A DNA stretch of 64,000 nucleotides, from assembly GCA_002376885.1 (NCBI GenBank), contig DFOW01000001.1:143741-207740 (forward strand), read 5' to 3'. Within the stretch, counting starts at the first letter, position 1, and every line of letters begins with the position of its first letter. Under the pieces are notes generated by a model. It was given only the letters and a program-made list of their open reading frames with translations. It was not told the origin of the DNA and ran no database searches. The stretch is from Patescibacteria group bacterium UBA3531 (GTDB lineage Bacteria > Patescibacteriota > Minisyncoccia > Phycocordibacterales > UBA3531). Both the position numbers and the translations under genes were made by a program. Shown here piece after piece: positions 1,170-34,272 of the stretch.

Positions 1170-2945
1170 CTAGAGAACCGAACGAACATTTGCAATTATA
1201 GTTGCATCTGCTCCCAAGGCTTGGAGGAGATTCACGATGGCATCAACTTGGGACTGTGATAGTCCACTTGATCCTGATGAAGAAGGTGCTGTCGTTTGAC
1301 TGCTTGTATTCCCTGAAGTACCTGTTGATGTATTTCCTCCATTCCCATAAACCTCGTTTAGCTTTGCAATAGTTTGAGGACCAACAAGACCGTAGCCAGT
1401 TGAATCTGAAGTTCCACCGCAGATAATATTGTATTTACATTGAAAGTTTTGTACCGCTGCCTCAGTCAACTTGCCGTAATAACCACTGGTAATTCCCTCT
1501 GGATAGAGTTCAGCATCTCTTGCGAGAAATTCCTGAAGTCTCCTAACATCGTCATTATTCATTCCACGCCACAAATTGCGTGTAAAGGCTGTTCCTGTTG
1601 CCGGAGTAGTTACTATTGGAGTGGGAGTTACTGGTGTTATCGTTCCATTTGTTGAAGACGTTACCGACAAAGAAATAGCATTACTGGTCACACTTTTTTC
1701 TTCTTCTCCGGCGACGAGTCTCTGACGATCAACTACACGAAGGGAGTATAGGCCCGGACCAAAACCCCACTGTGGAACTGTCCACGTGACAGAATTTGAG
1801 GTACTTCTTGCATCATACAAGTTATCCATTCCTACAACCTCTACGTACATGCCCCCTGGGGTAAAATTAGAGCCATAAATTGTTACTGTGTCACCCGGCC
1901 CCACCTGTGATGGACTAACAGAAGTAATATTTGGAATAACTCGTACGCCACCAACGTCTGAAGCAATCATCATATAAACTCTATTACTTTTTGTCTCGGA
2001 TGCTTTCTCACCTATTTGAATCCAGTACGTACCAGCCGTCAAATTAGTAGGAACAATAAAACTTAGGGAAGTAGAGGTCAAAGAAGACGCACCTATTGTT
2101 TGTTGTGCGGTCAATGATGAACTTCCTACAAGTCCAAGTACTTCTACATATGAACCTTGTCCGAAATTATTACCATATAAAGTCATTACTTCGCCTCCCT
2201 TCGCAGAAATAGGAGAAGTTGAGTTTATGTTTGGGACAGATGGTGTGGTAAGTATTGTGAAATTAATAGGAGTACTATCATAATTACTATTCCCTCTGTG
2301 TGTAACCTTAAGCCAATACGAGCCAGAGCTCAAGCTTGATGGCACTGTAAAAGTAAGAGTGGTGTCAGTAATGTTAGTTGGCAGTGCCACCGGGCCGCTC
2401 CCAGAAGCATCGTAGATACTAATAAAGGAATCATTGTTAAACCGAGCTCCGTTAACAACCACTGTTTGACCCACACGCGCCTGGGCAGGCTCAATGGAAT
2501 GTATAAATGGTCTTGATGTCACTGGCAAAGAACCAGCGGTATTCGCTGATACCACTGTAAAAAAGTCGTCAGATTCATCGGTCACAGAACCATATCCAGT
2601 ATCATATCCACGAACACGTATCTTAAACTGTGTATTGATAGTATTTCCAACGTTGACTGTCCAATCATAGTAACCCGTATTGTCTATACTAGACACGATA
2701 GTATTTAGCGAGCCAGGCCCTCTAGACCAATCAAGATTCACCTTATCAATATTTTCACTTGCATCCCAAGTAATCCTGTACGTATCACCGGCAATAAGAG
2801 TTTCCCCACCGTTAGGAGTTTTTATCTCTATGTTTCTTGCACCGCCCTGCGCAAATGCATCCCCAGCAGAAAAAGCAATTGCCAATAAGCCAAAAAGGAG
2901 AACAATAAACGATAATATTAAAAAATGTGGTCTATTTACGATCAT
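1170..2945 (-). CDS. secreted or cell-surface protein: signal/TM anchor, Kre9/KNH-like Ser-Thr-rich module, repeated IPT/TIG-like domains, C-terminal peptidoglycan-binding (PG_binding_1-like) domain
   Basis: N-term hydrophobic segment; repeats PNI(N/T)S(T/V)SP...G..V.I.G.NF; C-term LWRGMNNDDVRRLQEFLARD...GYYGKLTEAAVQNFQ resembles PG_binding_1. Confidence 0.55.
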   Translation of the reverse strand: MIVNRPHFLILSFIVLLFGLLAIAFSAGDAFAQGGARNIEIKTPNGGETLIAGDTYRITWDASENIDKVNLDWSRGPGSLNTIVSSIDNTGYYDWTVNVGNTINTQFKIRVRGYDTGYGSVTDESDDFFTVVSANTAGSLPVTSRPFIHSIEPAQARVGQTVVVNGARFNNDSFISIYDASGSGPVALPTNITDTTLTFTVPSSLSSGSYWLKVTHRGNSNYDSTPINFTILTTPSVPNINSTSPISAKGGEVMTLYGNNFGQGSYVEVLGLVGSSSLTAQQTIGASSLTSTSLSFIVPTNLTAGTYWIQIGEKASETKSNRVYMMIASDVGGVRVIPNITSVSPSQVGPGDTVTIYGSNFTPGGMYVEVVGMDNLYDARSTSNSVTWTVPQWGFGPGLYSLRVVDRQRLVAGEEEKSVTSNAISLSVTSSTNGTITPVTPTPIVTTPATGTAFTRNLWRGMNNDDVRRLQEFLARDAELYPEGITSGYYGKLTEAAVQNFQCKYNIICGGTSDSTGYGLVGPQTIAKLNEVYGNGGNTSTGTSGNTSSQTTAPSSSGSSGLSQSQVDAIVNLLQALGADATIIANVRSVL

Positions 2946-8215: not shown

Positions 8216-9472
8216 TTATTTAATTACGTCCTTTCCTAAATATTTTTGAAGCACCTCGGGCACACGAATGCTTCCATCTTCTTGTTGATTGTTCTCAAGG
8301 AGCGAAACAAGGATCCGTGGAGTTGGGATTGCTGTACTATTTAATGAGTGAGCGTATTGTTTTCCACCTTCGTCGTTATAACGAATATTAAAGCGTCGGG
8401 ATTGGAAGTCATGAAAATAAGACGCAGAGCTAATCTCTCGATATTTTTCTTCGCTTGGGACCCATAGTTCAATGTCATATTTTTTAACCTGACCAAGTCC
8501 CAAGTCTCCACCACAATTAGTGACCACCCTATAAGGAAGCCCAAGTGAGGTAATAAATTCTTCGGTGTTTGCATTCAGCCATTCGTGCCATTTAACTGAC
8601 TCTTCGTGACTGGCCTCACATAACACTACTTGTTCGAGTTTAAAAAATTCATGAACCCGAACAAGTCCTTTTGTATCTTTCCCGTAACTCCCTGCCTCAC
8701 GACGATAACACGGAGAGAATGCCAAGTACTTAAGAGGCAATTGTTTTTTGTCTAACGTTTCCCCTGCATGATATGCCATCATAGGAACCTCTGCTGTTCC
8801 TGAAAGATAATCATCGTCTTGTGTCACGTATAAATCTTCTGCTTCATTAGGAAGATGTCCCGTGCCATAAAAATATTCTTTTTTGACAATCGAAGGTGCG
8901 ATAAAAGGAGTAAACTCTTTTTTTAAGAAAAACTCTTGTGCATAGTTCCAGATCGCCCATGACAAAAGTGCGCCATCGTTCTTTAGGTAATATCCTCGAA
9001 ACCCATGAGCTTTACTCCCCCGTTCAAAATCAGCAAGAGAAAGCTGTGTTGCAAGTTCAATATGATTCTTAGGAGTGAATGAGAATTTAGGAATCTCTCC
9101 TACTTTTTTTAATTCTTTATTTTCTTCATCGGTTTTACCTTCAGGAACCGAGACATCAGGAATGTTAGGAACCTGAAGCATAAGGTCACGCCATTTTCCC
9201 ATAACATTTTTTAGTTTTTCTTCATCTTTTTGAAAGTCGTCTTTAAACGCCTTCATTTCTTTTATTTTCTTTTCTCGTTCCTCACCAGAGAGTTTTGCAA
9301 TCTCTTCAGTAACCTTATTTTGTTCAGCGCGTTTTTCTTCTACTTTTTTTAAAAGTTCTACTCTTTCGTCGTCCACCTTCAAGAGTTCTTTAACATCAAA
9401 TGACAGGTGCTTTTTTTGAGCCCCTGCCTGGACAAGATCTTTATTTTCTCGGATAAACTTAATATCCAACAT
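8216..9472 (-). CDS. serS: seryl-tRNA synthetase
   Basis: MLDIKFIREN... N-terminal coiled-coil arm plus class II core (FSPCYRREAGS, GLG...R...YNDEGGK). Confidence 0.9.
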   Translation of the reverse strand: MLDIKFIRENKDLVQAGAQKKHLSFDVKELLKVDDERVELLKKVEEKRAEQNKVTEEIAKLSGEEREKKIKEMKAFKDDFQKDEEKLKNVMGKWRDLMLQVPNIPDVSVPEGKTDEENKELKKVGEIPKFSFTPKNHIELATQLSLADFERGSKAHGFRGYYLKNDGALLSWAIWNYAQEFFLKKEFTPFIAPSIVKKEYFYGTGHLPNEAEDLYVTQDDDYLSGTAEVPMMAYHAGETLDKKQLPLKYLAFSPCYRREAGSYGKDTKGLVRVHEFFKLEQVVLCEASHEESVKWHEWLNANTEEFITSLGLPYRVVTNCGGDLGLGQVKKYDIELWVPSEEKYREISSASYFHDFQSRRFNIRYNDEGGKQYAHSLNSTAIPTPRILVSLLENNQQEDGSIRVPEVLQKYLGKDVIK

Positions 9473-9507
9473 TTTTTCATTCTAGCAGAAATGCTAGGAT
9501 AGTCACA

Positions 9508-10368
9508 ATGAACCCATTTGGCGATGTTCCGCTTCGCACACTAAAAGGAGACGACATTCCGGAAACTCTACGGGAGATCCCTGACCCTCCTAAAAAACTG
9601 TATGTACAAGGAGACTTACCAAAAGACTCTATTTATTTAACCGTTGTTGGTGCCCGAAAATATTCTGCATACGGAAAAGGCGCTTGTGAAGACATTATCG
9701 AAGGACTTAAAAATTATCCTTTTACTATCGTCTCAGGGCTTGCACTTGGTATTGATGGAATAGCCCATAAAAAAGCACTCGAAGTTGGTTTGCCGACCAT
9801 TGCTGTTCCAGGATCAGGACTTGATCCCTCAGTGATCGCGCCACGCACCAATTATTTTTTGGCACAAGACATTGTAAAAAGTGGTGGAGCGCTGTTGTCT
9901 GAATTTGAGCCAACCATGCCGGCCGCTCCCCGCACTTTTCCAAAACGAAACCGGATCATGGCTGGACTCTCTCAAGGTATTCTTATAATAGAAGCAACAA
10001 AAAAGTCAGGCACGTTAATTACCGCACGTCTTGGGCTCGACTACAATAAAAATATTTTTGCTGTCCCTGGGGCTATAACATCCCCCACAAGCGAAGGACC
10101 AAATTGGTTAATAAAAGAAGGAGCCACACCAGTTACCGACGCTCGTGATATTTTAGAAGTCTTTGGATTTGACACTCAAGATGAACCCAAAAACAAAGAA
10201 CCACTTCAAGGAAAAGAAAAAGAGCTCTTTGAACACATACAAAAATTCCCTAACAAAACAGATCTTTTAGAAAAAACAGGATGGTCAATAACCGACATTA
10301 ATATTGTAGGAACATCGCTTGAATTAAAAGGCTTAGTAAAAGACAACGGAGAAACATTTTCTTTTTAA
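9508..10368 (+). CDS. dprA: DNA-processing protein DprA (Smf)
   Basis: LTVVGARKYSAYG...IVSGLALGIDGIAHK...FPKRNRIMAGLS.GILIIEA Rossmann-like DprA signature. Confidence 0.85.
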   Translation: MNPFGDVPLRTLKGDDIPETLREIPDPPKKLYVQGDLPKDSIYLTVVGARKYSAYGKGACEDIIEGLKNYPFTIVSGLALGIDGIAHKKALEVGLPTIAVPGSGLDPSVIAPRTNYFLAQDIVKSGGALLSEFEPTMPAAPRTFPKRNRIMAGLSQGILIIEATKKSGTLITARLGLDYNKNIFAVPGAITSPTSEGPNWLIKEGATPVTDARDILEVFGFDTQDEPKNKEPLQGKEKELFEHIQKFPNKTDLLEKTGWSITDINIVGTSLELKGLVKDNGETFSF

Positions 10369-25883: not shown

Positions 25884-26630
25884 ATGCAGTATATAATATT
25901 ATCACCTTGTATGGGTATAAAATATTTAATAGACGAGCAATACTTTGAGAGCTGGTCCCCTGAAATGGCATACATTCTTGGATTTTTATATGCAGACGGA
26001 AGTTTGGAAAACGCTCCTAAACTGCGAGGAAAATATGTCAGAGCAACAAGCACCGATCTTGAAGTAATAAAACATATAAAAAAATCTTTACGTTCTGAAC
26101 ACAGAATAATCATAATACCCTCTTTTAGAAAGAGAAAAGAGAGATACTTGTTCAGAGCTGGAAGCCATGTTCTTTTTGATTCATTGACACAACATGGCCT
26201 TTTTCCAAATAAGTCTTTATCAATGAAGTTCCCCAAAAACATCCCTTCAAACTACCTAAGTCATTTTATAAGGGGATATTTTGATGGTGATGGATGTGTT
26301 CACTTGTCACAGGCCCGCAACCGAGAAGGTGCTCTACTGGTTAAAAGATTGGGCGTTGTCTTTACAAGCGGAAGTGAGTTATTTTTAAAAGAATTAGAAC
26401 GAGAAATCAGAAATGTCTTAAATATCAAAAAAAGAAATATCTATAAGAGTCGTCGTTCATTCCAGTTACGATATAGCACGACTGACAGTATAGAACTATT
26501 TACATTGATATATGCAAATACAAAAAATTTATTTTATTTAGGTAGAAAAAAAGAGATTTTCCTTCGATATTTTAAGTTGCGACCTCAGAGAATTAATACT
26601 AATATTGGTAAAATGTTAAAAAATATGTAA
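25884..26630 (+). CDS. free-standing LAGLIDADG homing endonuclease (two LAGLIDADG motifs)
   Basis: LGFLYADGS and IRGYFDGDGCV motifs about 100 aa apart; basic C-terminus. Confidence 0.75.
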   Translation: MQYIILSPCMGIKYLIDEQYFESWSPEMAYILGFLYADGSLENAPKLRGKYVRATSTDLEVIKHIKKSLRSEHRIIIIPSFRKRKERYLFRAGSHVLFDSLTQHGLFPNKSLSMKFPKNIPSNYLSHFIRGYFDGDGCVHLSQARNREGALLVKRLGVVFTSGSELFLKELEREIRNVLNIKKRNIYKSRRSFQLRYSTTDSIELFTLIYANTKNLFYLGRKKEIFLRYFKLRPQRINTNIGKMLKNM

Positions 26631-26635
26631 CCATG

Positions 26636-26709
26636 GCCCAGTGGCGAAGTTGGTTAACGCGACGGTCTGCAAAACCGTTATGCACCGGTTCGAATCCGGT
26701 CTGGGCCTT
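26636..26709 (+). tRNA. tRNA-Cys (anticodon GCA)
   Basis: Acceptor GGCCCAG/CTGGGCC, anticodon loop CTGCAAA, T-arm ACCGGTTCGAATCCGGT. Confidence 0.8.
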
Positions 26710-26726
26710 ACGCAGCTATAGTCATG

Positions 26727-26808
26727 GGCTAGTGGCGGAACCGGTATACGCGCAACACTTAAAATGTTGTCCCGATTCGGGATGTGGGTTCGAGTCCCAC
26801 CTAGCCCA
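26727..26808 (+). tRNA. tRNA-Leu (anticodon TAA)
   Basis: Acceptor GGGCTAG/CTAGCCC, anticodon stem CAACA/TGTTG loop CTTAAAA, long variable arm, T-arm GTGGGTTCGAGTCCCAC. Confidence 0.85.
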
Positions 26809-26835
26809 CAAGAAGAAATTTCAAATAATATTAAA

Positions 26836-26848
26836 TAACCGCCCATAG
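26836..26848. repeat. 13-bp duplicate of the tRNA-Lys 5' end (taaccgcccatag)
   Basis: Exact copy of 26916-26928, about 80 bp upstream of the tRNA. Confidence 0.6.
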
Positions 26849-26918
26849 TTGATAGAGATTGAAAGCGTGGGACGCTTTAAATGCGATAAACGGTAAGGTA
26901 ATATAGGAAAAAATTTAA

Positions 26919-26991
26919 CCGCCCATAGCTCAGCTGGTAGAGCAGACGGCTCTTAACCGTAAGGTCCTAGGTTCGAATCCTAGTGGGCGGA
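26919..26991 (+). tRNA. tRNA-Lys (anticodon CTT)
   Basis: Acceptor CCGCCCA/TGGGCGG, D-arm GCTCAGCTGGTAGAGC, anticodon loop CTCTTAA, T-arm CTAGGTTCGAATCCTAG. Confidence 0.75.
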
Positions 26992-27010
26992 CAAGCAATA
27001 AAATTGCTTT

Positions 27011-27093
27011 GGGCGAGTGGCGGAATTGGTAGACGCGCTGGTCTTAGGAACCAGTCTGCTTTGCAGGTGGAGGTTCGAGTCCTCTCTCGCCCA
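27011..27093 (+). tRNA. tRNA-Leu (anticodon TAG)
   Basis: Acceptor GGGCGAG/CTCGCCC, anticodon stem CTGGT/ACCAG loop CTTAGGA, long variable arm. Confidence 0.85.
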
Positions 27094-27101
27094 CAAGAAA
27101 A

Positions 27102-27149: not shown

Positions 27150-28133
27150 ATGGTTATAGAAGCACTCTTTTGGAGCGTTGTTTTTATTGTGGCACTTTAC
27201 GTCCTCGTAAAAGGATCTGATTATTTTATTCACCAAGCAGAGATTATTGGTGTCTCGTTTAAGCTTTCGCCTTTTGTTATTGGAATTTTGATTATTGGAA
27301 TCGGAACTTCTCTGCCAGAACTCACTACTGCAATCGTTGCTGTCATAAAAGGCACTACCGAGATTGTGACCGCAAATGCCGTCGGTTCAAATATTGCCAA
27401 TACTTTATTTATTTTAGGACTCGCAGCTATCATTACGCGCAACTTAACGGTTCAAAAAAACTTAATTTATTTAGATCTCCCACTTCTTACTGCCGTAACT
27501 CTTTTATTCCTTGGTGTTGCTGTTGATGGAAATATTATTCTTGATAACTCTATTCCCAGTATCGTCACACGGCCTGAAGCAATCTTTTTGATACTTACCT
27601 ATTTTGTCTATCTGGGTTATTCGCTTTTTTATAAAGACGATTATACAAAAAAAATTGATGATCTTTTAAATGGCCGAGAAGATCATTCCGACTGGAGGAA
27701 TTGGCTTCTTATGTTGTTTGGGCTTGCAGGTGTCATTATTGGCGCAAAGTATGTTGTTGATGCAACACTCGAGCTCTCTGTTATTTTTGGAATTGGAGTA
27801 AGTGTCATCTCTTTGTTTGCTATTGCGCTTGGAACGTCCTTGCCCGAGCTTTTTGTTTCTGTTCGCGCTATTCGAATTGGAAAACCAGAGATTGCTATCG
27901 GGAATATTTTTGGTTCCAATATGTTTAACTTGCTCCTCTTAATTGGAATCCCTGGACTCTTTACAAACCTTGTAATTGACCCTGTGACGCTCACCATTGG
28001 ATTGCCATTTTTGGCAGTAGCAACAGTCCTCTTTGTGGTCTCTGGAATCAGCAATAAGGTCCACTTTTGGGATGGGGCCATGTTTGTGCTCATGTATGCC
28101 CTTTTTGTGGCTAAACTGCTGGGTTTTTTCTAG
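27150..28133 (+). CDS. Ca2+/Na+ antiporter (CaCA family, YrbG-like)
   Basis: Two Na_Ca_ex repeats: GTSLPELTTAIVAV and GTSLPELFVSVRAIRIG...GNIFGSN. Confidence 0.8.
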   Translation: MVIEALFWSVVFIVALYVLVKGSDYFIHQAEIIGVSFKLSPFVIGILIIGIGTSLPELTTAIVAVIKGTTEIVTANAVGSNIANTLFILGLAAIITRNLTVQKNLIYLDLPLLTAVTLLFLGVAVDGNIILDNSIPSIVTRPEAIFLILTYFVYLGYSLFYKDDYTKKIDDLLNGREDHSDWRNWLLMLFGLAGVIIGAKYVVDATLELSVIFGIGVSVISLFAIALGTSLPELFVSVRAIRIGKPEIAIGNIFGSNMFNLLLLIGIPGLFTNLVIDPVTLTIGLPFLAVATVLFVVSGISNKVHFWDGAMFVLMYALFVAKLLGFF

Positions 28134-28163
28134 ATCCCCCTCCCTTGCGCGTCCCATTTTTAT

Positions 28164-28192
28164 ACTTGACAAAAGCACGATTTTATGCTAAT
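28164..28192 (+). promoter_or_regulatory. promoter cTTGACAaaag-17-TAATTT for cassette D
   Basis: TTGACA 28164-28169; AT-rich -10; AAAGAGG RBS before ATG at 28297. Confidence 0.4.
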
Positions 28193-28296
28193 TTTGATGC
28201 AGGTTAGATAGCACCGCGGTGGTGCACCAGACTGTACGTCGCAGTGCGACAGTTCATCGTCAACTCACTTTCTAGCGAAGAAAAGAGGTAATATTC

Positions 28297-29475
28297 ATGT
28301 CAATCATAACCCTGACGTTGATCGTCTTCGTCACGCTCCTTGTTCTGAGTGTGCCGTTGTTCGTCCTCGTTGCGTGGCTCCTGGCCTACCTGGATATCTT
28401 TTTTGGATTCCTCCAGGAGAATACGGGCTTCGCCAAGATCGTTGGAGACAACCAACTTCAAAGCATGCAAATCGCTTCGAAGAGTCAGCACCTCAAAAGG
28501 AAGGTGGTCCAACACCCTGAGGCGGGCGCAATCGAGACGTGGGTTCTGGAACAAGGAGCAGATCCCAACCCTGCCTTCGGCCTTATTGGTTGGATGGAGC
28601 GCAAGCTTGGTGTCTACTGGATTGGTGTTTGGCCGTTCCAAAGGCGCTACCGGTACGAGATGTTCCGAACCGTCTTCGATCGGAGTGCTGACGCAGACGA
28701 GAACACGATCCTCCGGAAGAATGACCAGAGCAAGTTCTTCTACGTTCAGCCGGTGGAGTACGCCTTCTCTCTCCTCGGAGCAGAGACAGGCAGTGCCTTC
28801 GCTGGCGACACAGAAGATACGGACACTTCGTCTCGGGGTGGCAACATCCCGGTGAACGTGAAGTTCTCCGTGTTCCTCTTGATCACAAGACCCGAGATTG
28901 CCCTCTTCAAGAACCCTGTATGGTTCGAGCGAGCAAGCTCGATCCTTCTGTCCGCAGCGAAGAACTACGTCGGCACTCGTGCGTATGAGGCGCTCCGTGG
29001 CGAAAGCCGATCGGACACCGCAGACGTCGAGACCGATGATGCCTTCGCGGGCTACATGCGGGATCTGAACGAAGCGATTCCGGGAACCGGTCACGGCTTC
29101 GAATCCGAGATCGGTGCCAAGATCGTCGGAGCGGCCATCAGAGCCGTCGACATCACGGCGGAGGGCGAAGAGGCCCGAAGCGCAACGCTGCTCCTCTACG
29201 GAGAAGAGCAGCGCGCCAAGGGAATCCGAGCCGTCGCTGATGCGCGTCGCTACGAGCTCGAACAGGAGCTCGATGCAGTCGATGGATCCCCCAACGGGGG
29301 GCACGTCCGTCGGATGCGCGCGATCGAGCGTGCAGGTGAGCGTGGTAACACAATCATCTTCACGAGCGGCGGCGACGAAAAGGAGGATCGTGTCGCAGCG
29401 AACCTTCTGGCTGGCCGCAAGGGTGAAGACCCCTCAAGCGAAGGCACCGATGACTCCACCGAGAAGGAGGAGTAG
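28297..29475 (+). CDS. G+C-rich SPFH/band-7-like membrane protein (cassette D)
   Basis: N-terminal TM, beta-rich core with ...ASSILLSAAKNYVGTRAYEAL..., EIGAKIVGAAIRAVDI, then A/E/R-rich coiled-coil AEGEEARSA...RAKGIRAVADARRYE as in HflK/C-flotillin. Confidence 0.5.
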   Translation: MSIITLTLIVFVTLLVLSVPLFVLVAWLLAYLDIFFGFLQENTGFAKIVGDNQLQSMQIASKSQHLKRKVVQHPEAGAIETWVLEQGADPNPAFGLIGWMERKLGVYWIGVWPFQRRYRYEMFRTVFDRSADADENTILRKNDQSKFFYVQPVEYAFSLLGAETGSAFAGDTEDTDTSSRGGNIPVNVKFSVFLLITRPEIALFKNPVWFERASSILLSAAKNYVGTRAYEALRGESRSDTADVETDDAFAGYMRDLNEAIPGTGHGFESEIGAKIVGAAIRAVDITAEGEEARSATLLLYGEEQRAKGIRAVADARRYELEQELDAVDGSPNGGHVRRMRAIERAGERGNTIIFTSGGDEKEDRVAANLLAGRKGEDPSSEGTDDSTEKEE

Positions 29476-30252
29476 ATGAAGATGCCTGACTCGATAAGGG
29501 GGCTTGGGTGGAAGCGGTTCTCCGCAACTGCCCTTACCTCGTTCATCCTCGTCATTGTCTCGTTCATGATCGTGAACGCAGGCGAGGGCGAGGCAGAGAA
29601 GGTCTTCAAGACTCTCTCTGTGATTGCGACCGGGATTGGAGCACTCCTCGTTCTCCTGCTTCTTCTCGTGATCGTGTCGTCTCTTGCTCGTAGGCGTCGG
29701 TCTCTCAAAAAAGAGACTCCCGTCGTCGACAAGCCGACCAAACCAGGAAGATGGCAGAAGTTCAGGGCCACTCCCTTCTTCTGGACACTCTTCAAGGTCT
29801 CCGCCTTCGTAGTGGCAGTAGTCATTGCAATAAGCGGATTCCCTCTGTTGCGTGACGCCATGAACATCCCCGACGTGGGGCCCAGGAATGGAGATCTCAA
29901 GTTCTCCAAGTGGACGCTCTCCAGTACACCACTGTCGTACAACCTGAATCGAACGACACGTGGTACGGTCAAGATCTGGAAGAAAGAGCGTCGCTTTGAG
30001 CTTCCGTTCTTCTTGAACATGAAGCTCATGGGCGAGGATGGAGTTCTCGTGGGGCAAATCACCTCGAGTGACTTTGCCATGGGCGAGACCTTCCCCGTCA
30101 CCTGGGAGATGACCTGGCGAGACCATATGACCGGAGACGGAGCCCTCGAGTGTCACTACAACAAACACCACAGCGTGATTGCTTGTAACGGCACCATCTG
30201 CGGCGAAGATTCCGAAGGTCGGAGGTGTCGTCGAGTGAACTTTAGCGGCTAG
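29476..30252 (+). CDS. G+C-rich membrane protein (3 TM + Cys-containing soluble C-domain), start abuts upstream stop; possible NfeD-like partner
   Basis: TAG-ATG junction at 29473-29478; three hydrophobic helices; no family recognised. Confidence 0.4.
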   Translation: MKMPDSIRGLGWKRFSATALTSFILVIVSFMIVNAGEGEAEKVFKTLSVIATGIGALLVLLLLLVIVSSLARRRRSLKKETPVVDKPTKPGRWQKFRATPFFWTLFKVSAFVVAVVIAISGFPLLRDAMNIPDVGPRNGDLKFSKWTLSSTPLSYNLNRTTRGTVKIWKKERRFELPFFLNMKLMGEDGVLVGQITSSDFAMGETFPVTWEMTWRDHMTGDGALECHYNKHHSVIACNGTICGEDSEGRRCRRVNFSG

Positions 30253-30267
30253 AAAGGAGAAGACATC

Positions 30268-30339
30268 CTCACATCTAAATATATAGATGTGAGAAAATGG
30301 GCCCTGTCCGCCATATGCGGATAGGGCCTGTTTCTTTGT
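30268..30339. terminator. tandem hairpins between convergent cassette D and pilin array
   Basis: CTCACATCTA-aatatat-AGATGTGAG and GGGCCCTGTCCGC-cata-TGCGGATAGGGCC + tgtttcttt. Confidence 0.55.
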
Positions 30340-30360: not shown

Positions 30361-30825
30361 CTATGGCAATATATTACAAAAAGGAGAATCTGCTGGAATA
30401 CAAAGTTCACGACCCTGATTACCAGAATTTCCTGTTGGCTGATTTGGAACCAAATTTCCAGGGTCGCTAATAGGTTGTGGTGGCTCGGTAAAAAATGGGC
30501 TTTCTCCCGGAACACCACCAAAAAAGATTGTTAAAATAATGGTCACAATCCCCCACAACGAAACAAGAACAAAAATTCCTACAACACCAATCACCAAAAT
30601 CCTTCGGGCTCCTTCTTTTTTTGTTGGGTCCTCACTCGAAGACAAATATTTAATAACACCCCAAATAAATACAACTACTGCCACCCCAACCAAAAGTGGA
30701 ACAACGTCACGAAGTGGAATAATTAAATTGTATACATAGACATCAAACGAGGTTTGCGCCGAGACAATAAATGGCACAAACAATAAAGAAAGGGTTGTAC
30801 TGATTCCAAAAAATTTCTTTAACAT
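30361..30825 (-). CDS. pilin-like paralog P1 (Sec signal + 2 TM, VirB2/TrbC-like T4SS-pilin architecture) with Pro-rich C-tail
   Basis: MLKKFFGISTTLSLLFVPFIVSAQ signal; LVGVAVVVFIWGVIKYLSSSEDPTKK...ILVIGVVGIFVLVSLWGI; start at internal ATG. Confidence 0.5.
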   Translation of the reverse strand: MLKKFFGISTTLSLLFVPFIVSAQTSFDVYVYNLIIPLRDVVPLLVGVAVVVFIWGVIKYLSSSEDPTKKEGARRILVIGVVGIFVLVSLWGIVTIILTIFFGGVPGESPFFTEPPQPISDPGNLVPNQPTGNSGNQGRELCIPADSPFCNILP

Positions 30826-31139
30826 GCTCCTATAAATACACAAAGTGTGTTTAATATTGCCCACACCCCTGCCATAATTACAAATCCAATAATCCCATAA
30901 ATTGCATTACGTTTTCCTCTCGCTACCTTGTCTTCGCTGTCTGCTCCGTAAATCCATTCAATAACTCCCCACGCAAATACAATCATGGCAACAACAAACA
31001 TAAGGCCAATCAAAGGACGCAAAATAAACAGTTGGATATTAAAAAGAATTTCTTCAAGTCTGCTTGTTTGGGCAAGCGCCACAAGTGGAATAAATAAAAA
31101 AGAAGTGACAATACCCAAAGCCTGTATGTGTCGTTTCAT
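30819..31139 (-). CDS. pilin-like paralog P2
   Basis: MKRHIQALGIVTSFLFIPLVALAQ signal; MFVVAMIVFAWGVIEWIYGADSEDK...IYGIIGFVIMAGVWAIL; start at internal ATG 31139. Confidence 0.5.
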   Translation of the reverse strand: MKRHIQALGIVTSFLFIPLVALAQTSRLEEILFNIQLFILRPLIGLMFVVAMIVFAWGVIEWIYGADSEDKVARGKRNAIYGIIGFVIMAGVWAILNTLCVFIGAC

Positions 31140-31219
31140 AATTACAGTATACCCACAAAACCTAAAAGGAGCACCATAGGTGCTCCTTTTAGTGTATATA
31201 AGTTTACCGAAGTAATTTC

Positions 31220-31582
31220 TTACGGAATTGGTGGAGTTTGTGCTGATCCTGTTCCTGCTCCAGTCAAGTTTTGCAAGATCGCAACAAGTCCCCAGATAGA
31301 CACGATTACAAAGATCGCAATAATGCCGTAAATCATAAGGTTTCGTCCTGCTGCTCGTTTTTCTTCGCTTTCTCCGGCAGTAACGTATCGGATAACTCCC
31401 CAAATGAATACCACAACAGCAACCGCTACAAGAAATGGAATCAAGTTTCCAATAATTCCTCGAGCTTGAGACAAAAGACTGCTGATGTATCCTGTGTTAG
31501 GAGATTGAGCAAGCGCCATCAAAGGAAGGAGTACTGCACTCGCTCCTGTTGCTGCACCTGCTAATTTTGCCGTATATTTCAT
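31220..31582 (-). CDS. pilin-like paralog P3
   Basis: Signal ...LLPLMALAQ; LVAVAVVVFIWGVIRYVTAGESEEK...IYGIIAIFVIVSIWGLV. Confidence 0.5.
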   Translation of the reverse strand: MKYTAKLAGAATGASAVLLPLMALAQSPNTGYISSLLSQARGIIGNLIPFLVAVAVVVFIWGVIRYVTAGESEEKRAAGRNLMIYGIIAIFVIVSIWGLVAILQNLTGAGTGSAQTPPIP

Positions 31583-31647
31583 ACTAGTATGATAAATCGT
31601 ACTTATAATTTTACTAATCGACCTTTGTTAAATGCTTAACAACTATT

Positions 31648-31935
31648 TTATAACGTCTCAATCGTCTCAGCAATAACGGTCACTATCACCCACGCTCCAA
31701 GCAAGACCGATGCACCGATAATGGTGTATAGAAACGTTTTTTTGGCACTTTTAATCTTGTCTTCACTCCCTCGTGCTGTTACAAATAAAAATCCAGAGTA
31801 AATGATAAAAAAAACTGCAATCACTACTCCGTACTGAATTAAAACATCCACCAGACGCTGCAACAGTCCTAAAAGATTGTCTGCAGCTATTGGATTTTGT
31901 AGCTGTGCGTGAGCTGTTTTTACAAGCTTAATCAT
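31648..31935 (-). CDS. pilin-like paralog P4, apparently lacking a signal peptide (possibly decaying copy)
   Basis: IAVFFIIYSGFLFVTARGSEDK...LYTIIGASVLLGAWVIV; in-frame TAA 4 codons upstream of ATG prevents N-extension. Confidence 0.4.
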   Translation of the reverse strand: MIKLVKTAHAQLQNPIAADNLLGLLQRLVDVLIQYGVVIAVFFIIYSGFLFVTARGSEDKIKSAKKTFLYTIIGASVLLGAWVIVTVIAETIETL

Positions 31936-32010
31936 AGTGCCTCTTGTTTAGTATAACGAATACGTTTACTTATGGTCTCCTCTTGAATAATTCTTGTGGA
32001 AATCCATTAT

Positions 32011-32415
32011 TTATACTCCCGGACAATTAGGAAATTGGTTCCAGTTCGTAAACGAACCATTCGCAAGCACTGAAATAATGGTATTGATAATAAGCCAAGC
32101 AGCAAAGGCAATAATAATACCGTACACACCATTTTTAATAGTACTTTGCGCTTTTCCGGTACTCCCCACATTCCCTGCAGCAAGCATGTATTGAATCCCA
32201 CCCCAGGCAATAACAAGTGCCGCAACCGGAATAATGATAATCAAAAGAAAATCAATAATAGTATCAGCAAGAATATATAAATGACACACGCGACAAGGTT
32301 CAAGATCACCTTGCCCACACACAATCAGACTCGGGAGTTGTGCATTAGCAACAAGCGGAAGCGCCGCGATCACAACAAGAAATAAGAATGATGAAATGTG
32401 TGCAATTTTTTTCAT
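32011..32415 (-). CDS. pilin-like paralog P5 (Cys-containing N- and C-extensions)
   Basis: Signal MKKIAHISSFLFLVVIAALPLVANAQ; VAALVIAWGGIQYMLAAGN...VYGIIIAFAAWLII. Confidence 0.5.
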   Translation of the reverse strand: MKKIAHISSFLFLVVIAALPLVANAQLPSLIVCGQGDLEPCRVCHLYILADTIIDFLLIIIIPVAALVIAWGGIQYMLAAGNVGSTGKAQSTIKNGVYGIIIAFAAWLIINTIISVLANGSFTNWNQFPNCPGV

Positions 32416-32416
32416 A

Positions 32417-33736
32417 CTATTGAGCTTGGTTTACAAGAGAACGAAGGGCATTTTTTGCAGTCACAATTGCTTGTCCCGCGTCAGTTACATTAATAGAAAC
32501 ATCTCGGACCATTTTTCTAAACACGTTTTCTGTGGCACCAGGATTAGGGTCAAGCCACGTGCGCGTTATGATCGCCCCATCGTAAAATACCGACATAACC
32601 GGATCTGTTGAACCACCCGACAAAAGATCTCTTCGCGCGCTTGGCAAAAAGAAGATATCTTCTAAAAGTCTTTGGTTTTCTTGTGAGGCAAATGAAAGGA
32701 AGAAAGCTGCAGGGAACGCCTGGTTAAAGTTTGGAGAGTTCTTAACAATTCCAACGGCATAAATAGTTCCATAGTTTGCGTCGGTTCCAACTTCCAATTG
32801 TGGTACTGGTGCAACGTCATAATTTAAAAGAGGATTCCTTGATTTTATATTTTCGTATTCACTTGCAGGTGCCAAATAAAGAGCCAAATCACCAAGAGAA
32901 AATGCATTAGCAGATGGTTGAAGCGAAGTGTTCCACGAGTAATGCCTTTTTACTGGGTCAGAAAACCCAGAGTAAAACGAGAGTGCAGACTCTGCAGGTG
33001 GTTGCCCACTTGCTTGCCCAGGAATATTGTTACCCAAAACCACTTGTGGTGTTCCATTTGCATCACGCGCTACTACATCATCCCCTGCTTGAAGTAATAA
33101 AAGAGAGAGGATATTTTTAAAATAATTTATGTTGTCTGCCTCACCAAGAGCAATAGCACTTTCAAGAATCTTTCCTCGAGAATCTCGCTTGGTAACTTGA
33201 TTAGAAAAATCAATAACGTTTGTCCATGTATCAGGGACTTGTGTGATTCGTTCATTGTTAAAGGTATCACGGTTCCAATACATAACCATCGGATCAACAA
33301 GGAGCGGGAGTGCAGAAATCGCTGTCCCTTCAACAAAAATCTCTGCGCCTTCTATATAGGTGTTTCTAAAGTCTCGGGTATCAAACCCTTCGCTTTCTTC
33401 TATGGGAAAAAGGCTGTCTTTAAGCGTTACTAGTTGTTCGTGTGGGAAAATAACAAGATCGGGCTGACTGTTGCTTGCAATTGCGCGGAGCAAATCAATT
33501 TCCAAATCACTTTCTTGTTTTTGTGTGTACCTGAGCGTTACCTTGTCTCCTACTTCAAATGCATCTAACTGAGAAGTAATTTTATTTGATGGAAGCGTAC
33601 CCCACACTTGAAGCGTTACCGGATTTGCTCGAGAACTCCCACCACCAGGAGAGGGAATATACCCCGCAAACATAAGCGTTCCAATAACGCCCAGCGCGAT
33701 AAAAATTCCGATAAGTGTGATTTGAAACGCTTTCAT
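32417..33736 (-). CDS. secreted extracellular solute-binding-protein-like (ABC SBP family 1-like) protein, no permease genes nearby
   Basis: Signal/TM then VTLQVWGTLP..., PDLVIFPHEQLV, LPLLVDPMVMYWNRDTF, PDTWTNVIDF motifs reminiscent of MalE-type SBPs. Confidence 0.45.
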   Translation of the reverse strand: MKAFQITLIGIFIALGVIGTLMFAGYIPSPGGGSSRANPVTLQVWGTLPSNKITSQLDAFEVGDKVTLRYTQKQESDLEIDLLRAIASNSQPDLVIFPHEQLVTLKDSLFPIEESEGFDTRDFRNTYIEGAEIFVEGTAISALPLLVDPMVMYWNRDTFNNERITQVPDTWTNVIDFSNQVTKRDSRGKILESAIALGEADNINYFKNILSLLLLQAGDDVVARDANGTPQVVLGNNIPGQASGQPPAESALSFYSGFSDPVKRHYSWNTSLQPSANAFSLGDLALYLAPASEYENIKSRNPLLNYDVAPVPQLEVGTDANYGTIYAVGIVKNSPNFNQAFPAAFFLSFASQENQRLLEDIFFLPSARRDLLSGGSTDPVMSVFYDGAIITRTWLDPNPGATENVFRKMVRDVSINVTDAGQAIVTAKNALRSLVNQAQ

Positions 33737-33741
33737 TATTC

Positions 33742-34272
33742 TTATTCCTTTTCAAATATTATCGCATAATGGTGTTCGCCTGTCTCAAAACTCTCAAGCT
33801 CTCGAAACCCATGACGAGAAAATAAATCGTGTGTCATGTCTTTTGTCATAACCATTTCGGGTGTCGGCCCCAAATGTCCATGCGAATCTGTCCAATCAAC
33901 TACAAGTACGCGACCACCATGCTTTAAGACTCTATTTGCCTCTCCTACTAAAACATCTTTATGTTCTACTTGGAAAACAAGATTTGAAATAATCACTGCA
34001 TCGCATAAACCATCTTTTAAACCAGCGCCCCCTTCTTCTTCAATATCGCCCCAGAGCGTTTCTATATTGTGTGCACCGGCCTCTTGTGCCCTATTTTTAA
34101 GAGTCGGAAAAAGATCTTTTTGAATATCGATTGCATATACCTTTCCACTCGTACCAACACGAGGACTTGCGGCCAAGGCATATTCACCTGTCCCGGTACC
34201 AAAATCAGCGAGGATCATTCCCTCGCGCAGGCCAAGCCGTGCCACAACATCTCGTGGATTTAAAAAAGCCAT
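33742..34272 (-). CDS. class I SAM-dependent methyltransferase
   Basis: ILADFGTGTGEYAL motif I, ...VLKHGGRVLVVDW. Confidence 0.75.
   Translation of the reverse strand: MAFLNPRDVVARLGLREGMILADFGTGTGEYALAASPRVGTSGKVYAIDIQKDLFPTLKNRAQEAGAHNIETLWGDIEEEGGAGLKDGLCDAVIISNLVFQVEHKDVLVGEANRVLKHGGRVLVVDWTDSHGHLGPTPEMVMTKDMTHDLFSRHGFRELESFETGEHHYAIIFEKE

Follow-up and report, generated by a model that had tools for sequence, protein, structure and literature searches.

A solute-binding-protein gene joined to a tandem array of VirB2-type pilin genes on the chromosome of a Patescibacterium

Introduction

Members of the Patescibacteria are already known to carry pilin genes in arrays (McLean 2018/2020; Wang 2023, PMC10633639; Quinonero-Coronel 2025, PMC12102498). 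Here, we describe a tandem array of five such genes, preceded by a gene for a solute-binding protein (SBP), on a stretch of 64,000 nucleotides from the genome of Patescibacteria group bacterium UBA3531 (GenBank assembly GCA_002376885.1, contig DFOW01000001.1, positions 143,741 to 207,740 of the forward strand). This whole stretch is called the window, and coordinates refer to it unless a related locus is named. For TM7x, an ‘array of small signal-peptide proteins’ has been reported (bioRxiv 10.1101/258137). In Candidatus Southlakia epibionticum (Se ML1), six genes of the family PF18895 (SEML1_0014–0019) lie in a type IV secretion system (T4SS) locus and all of them are essential (Wang et al., 2023, PMC10633639). 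A wide survey found VirB2-like pilins in 1,948 assemblies, with VirB4 widespread in Patescibacteria (Quinonero-Coronel et al., 2025, PMC12102498). It counted 441 arrays of 2–11 pilin genes with a mean identity of 25%, an array being defined as two or more pilin genes that are adjacent or have a single non-pilin gene between them (PMC12102498). The pilins lie near virB4 in only 1,135 assemblies (∼58%) and are remote from it in ∼40%; arrays are abundant mainly in Microgenomatia and Saccharimonadia, and virB4 of Paceibacteria is usually near dnaA (PMC12102498). Antigenic or host-range variation has been proposed for the arrays (PMC12102498), and the idea of a Gram-positive pilus is called ‘intriguing’ in a 2025 review, where uptake from the host is raised as a speculation (PMC12857230).

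With five consecutive pilin genes the window array fits the survey's definition, and the tandem array itself is a member of the published kind: it shares with the Patescibacteria VirB2-like arrays the match to PF18895 (sometimes PF04956), the tandem layout of 4–6 small proteins with a Sec signal and two transmembrane (TM) helices, a paralog identity of ∼25%, the chromosomal location and the lack of a relaxase. It differs from the array of Se ML1 and other published arrays in lying outside any T4SS locus (VirB4, VirB6 and PrgI had no match in the 64 kb, nor among the best-listed families of large ORFs within 10 kb of 80 relatives) and in its fixed gene order, written A-B-D(n) below. Unlike the Se ML1 array, arrays of the window type are always preceded by, and sometimes fused to, an SBP of the MalE type; they are found Paceibacteria-wide, whereas the published ones are mainly from Microgenomatia and Saccharimonadia. 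With its SBP partner, its fixed subunit classes and its place away from a T4SS cluster, the array seems to be a variant that we have not found described. No mention of an SBP partner of a pilin array was found in the papers retrieved on Patescibacteria VirB2 pili and solute-binding proteins, and no SBP_bac_8 gene stands beside the Se ML1 pilin locus. The SBP of the window is identical to an NCBI entry, ‘hypothetical protein CL654_01675 [bacterium]’, on a contig of 245,626 bp; the locus-tag prefix CL654 was not found in the supplement of the survey.

Periplasmic or surface SBPs are tied to type IV secretion or conjugation in ChvE–VirA of Agrobacterium and in PrgZ of pCF10, where they act through a sensor kinase or the Opp permease to regulate expression. 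The SBP of the window differs from these in having neither kinase nor permease, and is linked to the pilin subunits themselves.

Results

The operon and its conservation

The SBP and the five pilins form an operon-like, chromosomal unit of six co-oriented genes on the minus strand (33736..30361). The SBP gene comes first (33736..32417; 439 aa) and is followed by P1 (32415..32011; 134 aa), P2 (31935..31648; 95 aa), P3 (31582..31220; 120 aa), P4 (31139..30819; 106 aa) and P5 (30825..30361; 154 aa). A gap of 1 nt separates the SBP stop codon from the ATG of P1, and the start of P5 overlaps the stop of P4 by 7 nt.

An SBP alignment scan with one genome per species gave at least 594 loci, the best 80 of which were taken with 10-kb flanks; a hidden Markov model (HMM) built from the five window pilins then picked out 395 pilin open reading frames (ORFs) in 84 sources. 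Downstream DNA of more than 2.5 kb was available for 65 loci, and in every one of them the SBP gene is immediately followed, on its own strand, by three to eight pilin genes; SBP identity in these informative relatives is about 33–50%. Five pilin genes is the most common number (27 loci), followed by six (16), four (11), seven (8), three (2) and eight (1). The first pilin mostly starts between −3 and +25 nt from the SBP stop, and pilin matches away from the array are rare in the related loci. As an independent check, PF18895 matched 121 of the 125 array ORFs from 22 other loci, with 27 also matching TrbC. The arrangement is kept at SBP identities of 46%, 36%, 31% and 28%, the last being that of the most distant locus (L085), which has only three pilins.

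The two components are also found as one protein. In loci L070 (9986–11668) and L073 (3510–5216) the SBP ORF continues into a pilin of class A, the class to which P1 belongs, giving proteins of 560 and 568 aa that are 65% identical. With these two included, the database contains five fusions of the SBP with a class-A pilin (P0174, P0175, P0242 with 597 aa, P0246 with 594 aa and the fragment P0177). The fusions fall into two subgroups that are ∼46% identical. Their layout is an SBP domain, a linker, a Cys motif and two TM helices, with the SBP in place of the pilin signal peptide, a predicted topology that is consistent with an SBP on the outside and a pilin with its N-terminus out. Fusions of this sort are Rosetta-stone evidence of joint physical action of the SBP and the class-A subunit, and a physical association of the two is supported by these sequences, although as a prediction.

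The pilins

All five genes match the T4SS pilin family PF18895 above its Pfam gathering cutoff of 26.6 bits, with E values from 6e-11 to 9e-8 and scores of 35.4 bits (P1), 39.4 bits (P2), 42.8 bits (P3, the top score), 35.7 bits (P4) and 32.5 bits (P5). P2 alone is also above the cutoff for the TrbC/VirB2 family PF04956 (31.0 versus 27.9 bits). The other array pilins are 21–26% identical to P1. The five align over a common core that runs from an N-terminal hydrophobic segment through an invariant A-Q to TM1, a charged loop and TM2; in the AxAQ motif A25–Q26 is invariant in all five. TM1 ends in the pattern ..F(I/A)WG(V/G)I.Y, and the loops between the helices are short and acidic/basic (GSEDK, ESEEK, DSEDK and SEDPTKK). 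Hydropathy shows a signal-like segment and two TM-length segments in P1, P3, P4 and P5.

Around this core the subunits have features of their own. P1 has a signal peptide ending ..VANAQ, a Cys motif CGQGDLEPCRVCHL before TM1, then TM2 and a C-terminus ending ..FPNCPGV. The signal peptide of P3 ends ..MALAQ and its two TM helices are followed by a short Gly/Thr/Pro tail, while P4 has a signal peptide ending ..VALAQ, two TM helices and the C-terminus ..FIGAC. In P5 the signal peptide ends ..IVSAQ, and after its two TM helices comes a tail of 50 aa that is rich in Pro, Asn and Gly and contains two Cys residues. P2 has an 11-aa leader, MIKLVKTAHAQ, in place of a full signal peptide, then an NPI motif and a TM1 that ends YSGFLFVTARG. 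With the preceding stop only 75 nt upstream, a full signal peptide would not fit in P2. The short leader is kept in the closest homologues, P0106–P0109 (60–86% identity); in this sub-lineage the class-B leader is 10–12 aa long with the pattern M-I/L-x-x-I/V-x-K-x-x-A-Q (31903–31935 in P2), and its conservation marks it as a trait of the lineage and not an assembly error. For P2, an AlphaFold2 model made with 61 homologues confidently gives a hairpin of two helices (pLDDT 86.9; helices 21–53 and 58–94).

These results bear on the original prediction, made from the window sequence, which had described five VirB2/TrbC-like pilin paralogs with a signal peptide and two TM helices. The family searches were positive for all five genes, and the layout agrees with the hydropathy and, for P2, with the modelled hairpin, one member being without a signal peptide. 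That member had been called P4, which corresponds to P2 here if the earlier numbering went by ascending coordinate, and it has a leader of 11 aa only. The Pro/Cys tails assigned to the two outer genes, P1 and P5, are seen in their translations.

Like TrbC/VirB2 pilins (PF04956), the array proteins combine a signal peptide with a two-helix hairpin and a short basic loop, and P2 and the 27 of 125 related array genes noted above match the TrbC model itself. Unlike the Gram-negative members of that family, they belong to a monoderm host, occur as five differentiated paralogs instead of one major pilin and have no adjacent VirB3–B11; there is no evidence here of cyclization or of a TraF-type peptidase and no significant match to solved pilins. 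A weaker resemblance is to the Mbov_0395 family of Mycoplasma integrative and conjugative elements (ICEs; NF045849), which also comprises small two-TM proteins from wall-less or monoderm bacteria. All five genes show profile similarity to this NCBIfam entry (15.6–29.4 bits), but every score is below the 40-bit cutoff and the context in the window is core chromosome and not an ICE, and the similarity was not taken as membership. Matches to DctQ, DUF5671, DUF4153, tetraspanin and other Pfam families were weak, below cutoff and ascribed to hydrophobic bias.

Order of the subunit classes

Clustering of 383 array pilins gave three major old classes, A, B and D, and a minor cluster of seven members between B and D. 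Class A stands first in the array (P1 in the window) and has a signal peptide followed by a conserved Cys motif, PC..C[DT]F..L. Class B stands second (P2), is TrbC-like and has an NPL/NPI motif and a TM1 ending in YSGFLFVTARG. Class D follows in two to five copies (P3, assigned by clustering, P4 and P5), each with a signal peptide and two TM helices. The commonest patterns are ABDDD (20 loci), ABDDDD (14) and ABDDDDD (8); some arrays lack class A (BDDD, eight loci). There is positional orthology within class D: last genes compared with last genes between genomes score above cross-position pairs (0.337 versus 0.24), and P4, in a best-match table, most resembles the gene that ordinarily closes related arrays. 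Within arrays of the relatives the identity between class-D genes has a median of 36%, and some pairs reach 90%. Judged from these comparisons, the pilin classes are old, position-specific paralogs in a fixed A-B-D(n) order.

The solute-binding protein

The SBP matches PF13416 (SBP_bac_8) with 51 bits. Its AlphaFold2 model (pLDDT 94) has an N-terminal TM helix (residues 3–24), a linker and a two-lobe MalE-like fold. The top Foldseek matches in the PDB were 4qsd, 2zyo, 7bvt and 4r9g (E ≃ 1e-21; TM-scores of 0.63–0.73), and a profile search against the PDB agrees (4r9f at 4.8e-22). These nearest structures bind sucrose/maltotriose, cyclodextrin and mannotriose, at sequence identities of 13–18%. 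The upstream 439-aa protein, which had originally been called SBP-like, is shown by Pfam, AlphaFold2 and Foldseek alike to have the SBP_bac_8/MalE-type fold. Its homologues are named as Taylor-, Terry-, Zambryski-, Yonath-, Nomura- and Wolfe-bacteria and Paceibacterota, which bears out the origin from the candidate phyla radiation (CPR) suggested earlier: by these names the organism is a Paceibacteria-type CPR bacterium.

Thirteen residues, most of them aromatic or polar, are invariant in the family, including W45, Y70, D93, D148, N155, N202, Q216, W268, N301 and Q313, and the N-lobe motifs GPD.. and VDP..YWN are conserved. The two-lobe fold and these N-lobe motifs are shared with the SBPs of MalE-type ATP-binding cassette (ABC) importers, and D148 aligns with the MalE ligand residue E111. 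Unlike those proteins, the SBP has an N-terminal TM anchor in place of a lipobox; it was judged to be TM-anchored because it lacks a lipobox Cys. It also has no permease or ATPase genes nearby, and its genetic partner is a pilin array, with natural SBP::pilin fusions in some relatives. No ABC permease or ATPase (BPD_transp or ABC_tran) matched among the 39 large window ORFs outside the operon, nor was one present among the conserved neighbour clusters of 83 loci; a single ABC_tran match occurred among 25 non-conserved large ORFs near related loci, in a listing of the best 25 of 63 matched families. From the model, the SBP is most likely a membrane-anchored surface receptor of the oligosaccharide-SBP type.

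An orphan SBP of another family, SBP_bac_5 (586 aa), adjoins secG ∼7–9 kb past the right end of the window (L084:1427–3452). The same SBP_bac_5/secG pairing is present in Ca. Southlakia epibionticum (SEML1_0634, 0635), where the SBP is essential by transposon sequencing (Wang et al., 2023, PMC10633639).

Hairpins and terminators

Two hairpins lie in the distal half of the operon and at its end. Between P3 and P4 on the minus strand is a terminator-like internal stem-loop (31162..31192) with a 14-bp stem followed by GUUUUG; the 73-nt stretch from the P3 stop that includes it has a folding energy of −30 kcal/mol. Locus L002 has a similar hairpin after gene 3, and ∼30% of the relatives' arrays have an internal hairpin at the −3/−2 positions. 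The window hairpin may act as a partial terminator or attenuator, by which the SBP, P1, P2 and P3 would exceed P4 and P5 in abundance. A GC-rich bidirectional terminator hairpin with a 17-bp stem (30295..30333) closes the operon, which is convergent there with an ORF on the plus strand (29476..30252); the 73-nt stretch from the P5 stop that includes this hairpin has a folding energy of −24.6 kcal/mol. A strong hairpin closes 85% of the related arrays.

The convergent side downstream of the array is a GC-rich block (28000–30300; GC fraction 0.55–0.64 versus ∼0.41 for the window) with two ORFs on the plus strand, 28297..29475 (392 aa) and 29476..30252 (258 aa). The 392-aa ORF has no Pfam match but recurs as a conserved neighbour, in convergent orientation, in 23 related loci, and for that reason the reading of the block as a simple foreign insertion is not supported. 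The gene in this position in L002 and L086 is a Band_7/SPFH gene. The GC content of the neighbour is raised in many relatives (by 4.4 percentage points on average and by 16 here), and the 258-aa ORF occurs in the window alone. Amino-acid bias or xenologous replacement may account for the high GC content.

Genomic surroundings

A small SAM-dependent methyltransferase gene (33742..34272, minus strand; 176 aa; Methyltransf_31/11/25 matches) lies 5 nt upstream of the SBP gene and is possibly co-transcribed with the SBP–pilin unit. It occupies the −1 position, between gyrA and the SBP gene, in 68 of 83 loci and is missing in L085, where gyrA abuts the SBP gene. In most relatives the syntenic block reads Lactamase_B_3, a small ORF, gyrA, methyltransferase, SBP and pilins.

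Pfam scans of the 39 large window ORFs outside the operon gave housekeeping functions or no match. The housekeeping genes include those for ClpB, IF2, IscS, TopA, DprA, RelA, ParB, FtsA/Z, LeuRS, HisRS, SerRS, LepA, MurJ, RNR and GyrA. On this core context, syntenic across the class, the reading as a mobile element or ICE remnant was rejected.

Three further genes are recorded here. A free-standing LAGLIDADG homing-endonuclease-like ORF (25884–26630, plus strand; 248 aa) separates the IF2 region from a cluster of tRNA genes for Cys, Leu, Lys and Leu (26635–27094); homologues are found at the equivalent place in only four of 83 loci. A 591-aa protein (1170–2945, minus strand) with Ig-like (Kre9_KNH, DUF4469) and peptidoglycan-binding domains is, from its domains, a possible cell-surface or adhesin protein. 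In L085 a gene (8548–9900) for a membrane glycosyltransferase resembling the PMT family of protein O-mannosyltransferases comes after the array, in the same orientation.

Discussion

The original prediction placed the array with the SBP, in preference to a role as a conjugation pilus. That view is strengthened by the adjacency in 65 of 65 loci, by the SBP::pilin fusions and by the lack of any match to a T4SS ATPase or relaxase nearby. As the fullest account of the locus we consider it probable, if only modestly so, that a glycan-binding-type receptor is physically coupled to a hetero-oligomeric pilus or membrane assembly of the VirB2 type, built by a T4SS encoded elsewhere and serving host contact or uptake. 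Sec would export the pilins, with cleavage after AxA|Q, and P2, with its short leader, would be inserted into the membrane without a full signal peptide. They would then sit in the membrane as hairpins with both termini outside and the charged loop inside, and a VirB4/VirB6-type machine from elsewhere on the chromosome would assemble them into a hetero-oligomeric pilus-like or envelope-spanning structure. Through its association with the class-A subunit, the SBP would bring a module of the glycan-binding type to the base or the tip of this structure, where it may serve in host recognition and attachment or in the capture of a host-derived saccharide.

Several results weigh against this account. 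The Pfam scans found no VirB4, VirB6, VirD4, relaxase or integrase in the 64-kb window, as the original prediction had stated for VirB4, VirD4 and the relaxase, and no PrgI either. T4SS genes had no match in the ∼10 kb to the right of the window. When the neighbours of 83 loci were clustered, no VirB4-like cluster fell within 10 kb of any locus, and in a Pfam census of 25 non-conserved large ORFs the best 25 of 63 matched families were all housekeeping ones. The link to a T4SS is therefore drawn from homology and the literature only. No solved T4SS pilin was matched by sequence with the pilin profile, and Foldseek with the pilin model returned nothing significant, only generic helical hairpins. 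A structure search cannot discriminate pilins, because the two-helix hairpin is too simple a fold; membership of the pilin family is accordingly assigned from the curated HMMs and the architecture, not from structure. In the SBP, E111 is the only ligand residue of MalE with an invariant counterpart (D148) in the alignment. The fusions would have three TM segments and so fit awkwardly with a subunit that has to leave the membrane to join a filament. Finally, the wider block is itself syntenic, so that adjacency alone is weaker evidence and no proof of function.

Some of these points lead to the main rival, a T4SS-independent membrane platform or channel made of the five two-TM proteins, on which the SBP docks; it would be a sensing or uptake device of a new, SBP-dependent kind and not a filament. 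SBPs normally act by docking on membrane partners, the three-TM fusions suit a resident complex better than a polymerizing subunit, and the gene order and near-fixed composition resemble a defined stoichiometry. Near the operon, moreover, neither the window nor the families listed for the 80 relatives gave a match to a T4SS gene, and the window has no ABC permease or ATPase match. Such a complex has to be set against the clear PF18895/TrbC homology and against the Saccharibacteria, in which homologous arrays lie inside a T4SS locus and are essential together with the T4SS (PMC10633639). It would have no energy-coupling component, and the variation of class D between two and five copies is unusual for a fixed complex. 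We regard it as rather unlikely, but as the alternative that deserves most attention.

The array could instead encode alternative major pilins that serve to vary antigens or host range, an idea put forward for Bartonella and Anaplasma and, tentatively, for Patescibacteria; the SBP would then be a mere neighbour. The hypothesis is stated in PMC12102498, and the low paralog identity of 21–26%, the varying number of class-D genes among genomes and the within-array pairs that are 90% identical are all in its favour. Classes A and B, however, are single-copy and stand first and second, the class-D positions are orthologous at SBP identities of 28–68%, and the fusions tie the SBP to class A. Paralogs that are old and position-specific favour differentiated, non-redundant subunits over interchangeable variants, and we consider this explanation improbable. 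Just as doubtful, at present, is a narrower use of the operon as a nutrient-capture device, in which the SBP, tethered to the first pilin subunit and in some lineages fused with it, would hand a host oligosaccharide to a VirB2-type pilus or conduit for import with no ABC permease. Coincidental synteny, with an SBP of unrelated (orphan ABC) function merely sitting beside the array in a gyrA-proximal block, has the shared order from Lactamase_B_3 to the array in most relatives on its side but is very improbable given the 1-nt or overlapping SBP/P1 junctions in most loci, the adjacency kept at 28% SBP identity even without the methyltransferase and the five independent database entries that are SBP::pilin fusions.

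The one genetically tractable Patescibacterium needs its pilin array for epibiotic growth, and on what such arrays build or move the reviews speculate about a conduit for uptake from the host. If the SBP link were only synteny, then the locus would be one more member of a published family. The arrays as described here are ordered sets of ancient paralogs, which argues against simple antigenic variation. With a receptor coupled to a VirB2-type assembly, the SBP–array pairing gives a concrete handle on the uptake idea: a soluble ectodomain, a predicted contact between the SBP and class A, and the subunit classes A, B and D. Nutrient capture, if true, would be the first mechanistic link of a T4SS-type pilus to substrate uptake in episymbiotic CPR bacteria, and the significance of the coupling would rise sharply if the SBP loads or guides a pilus-type conduit.

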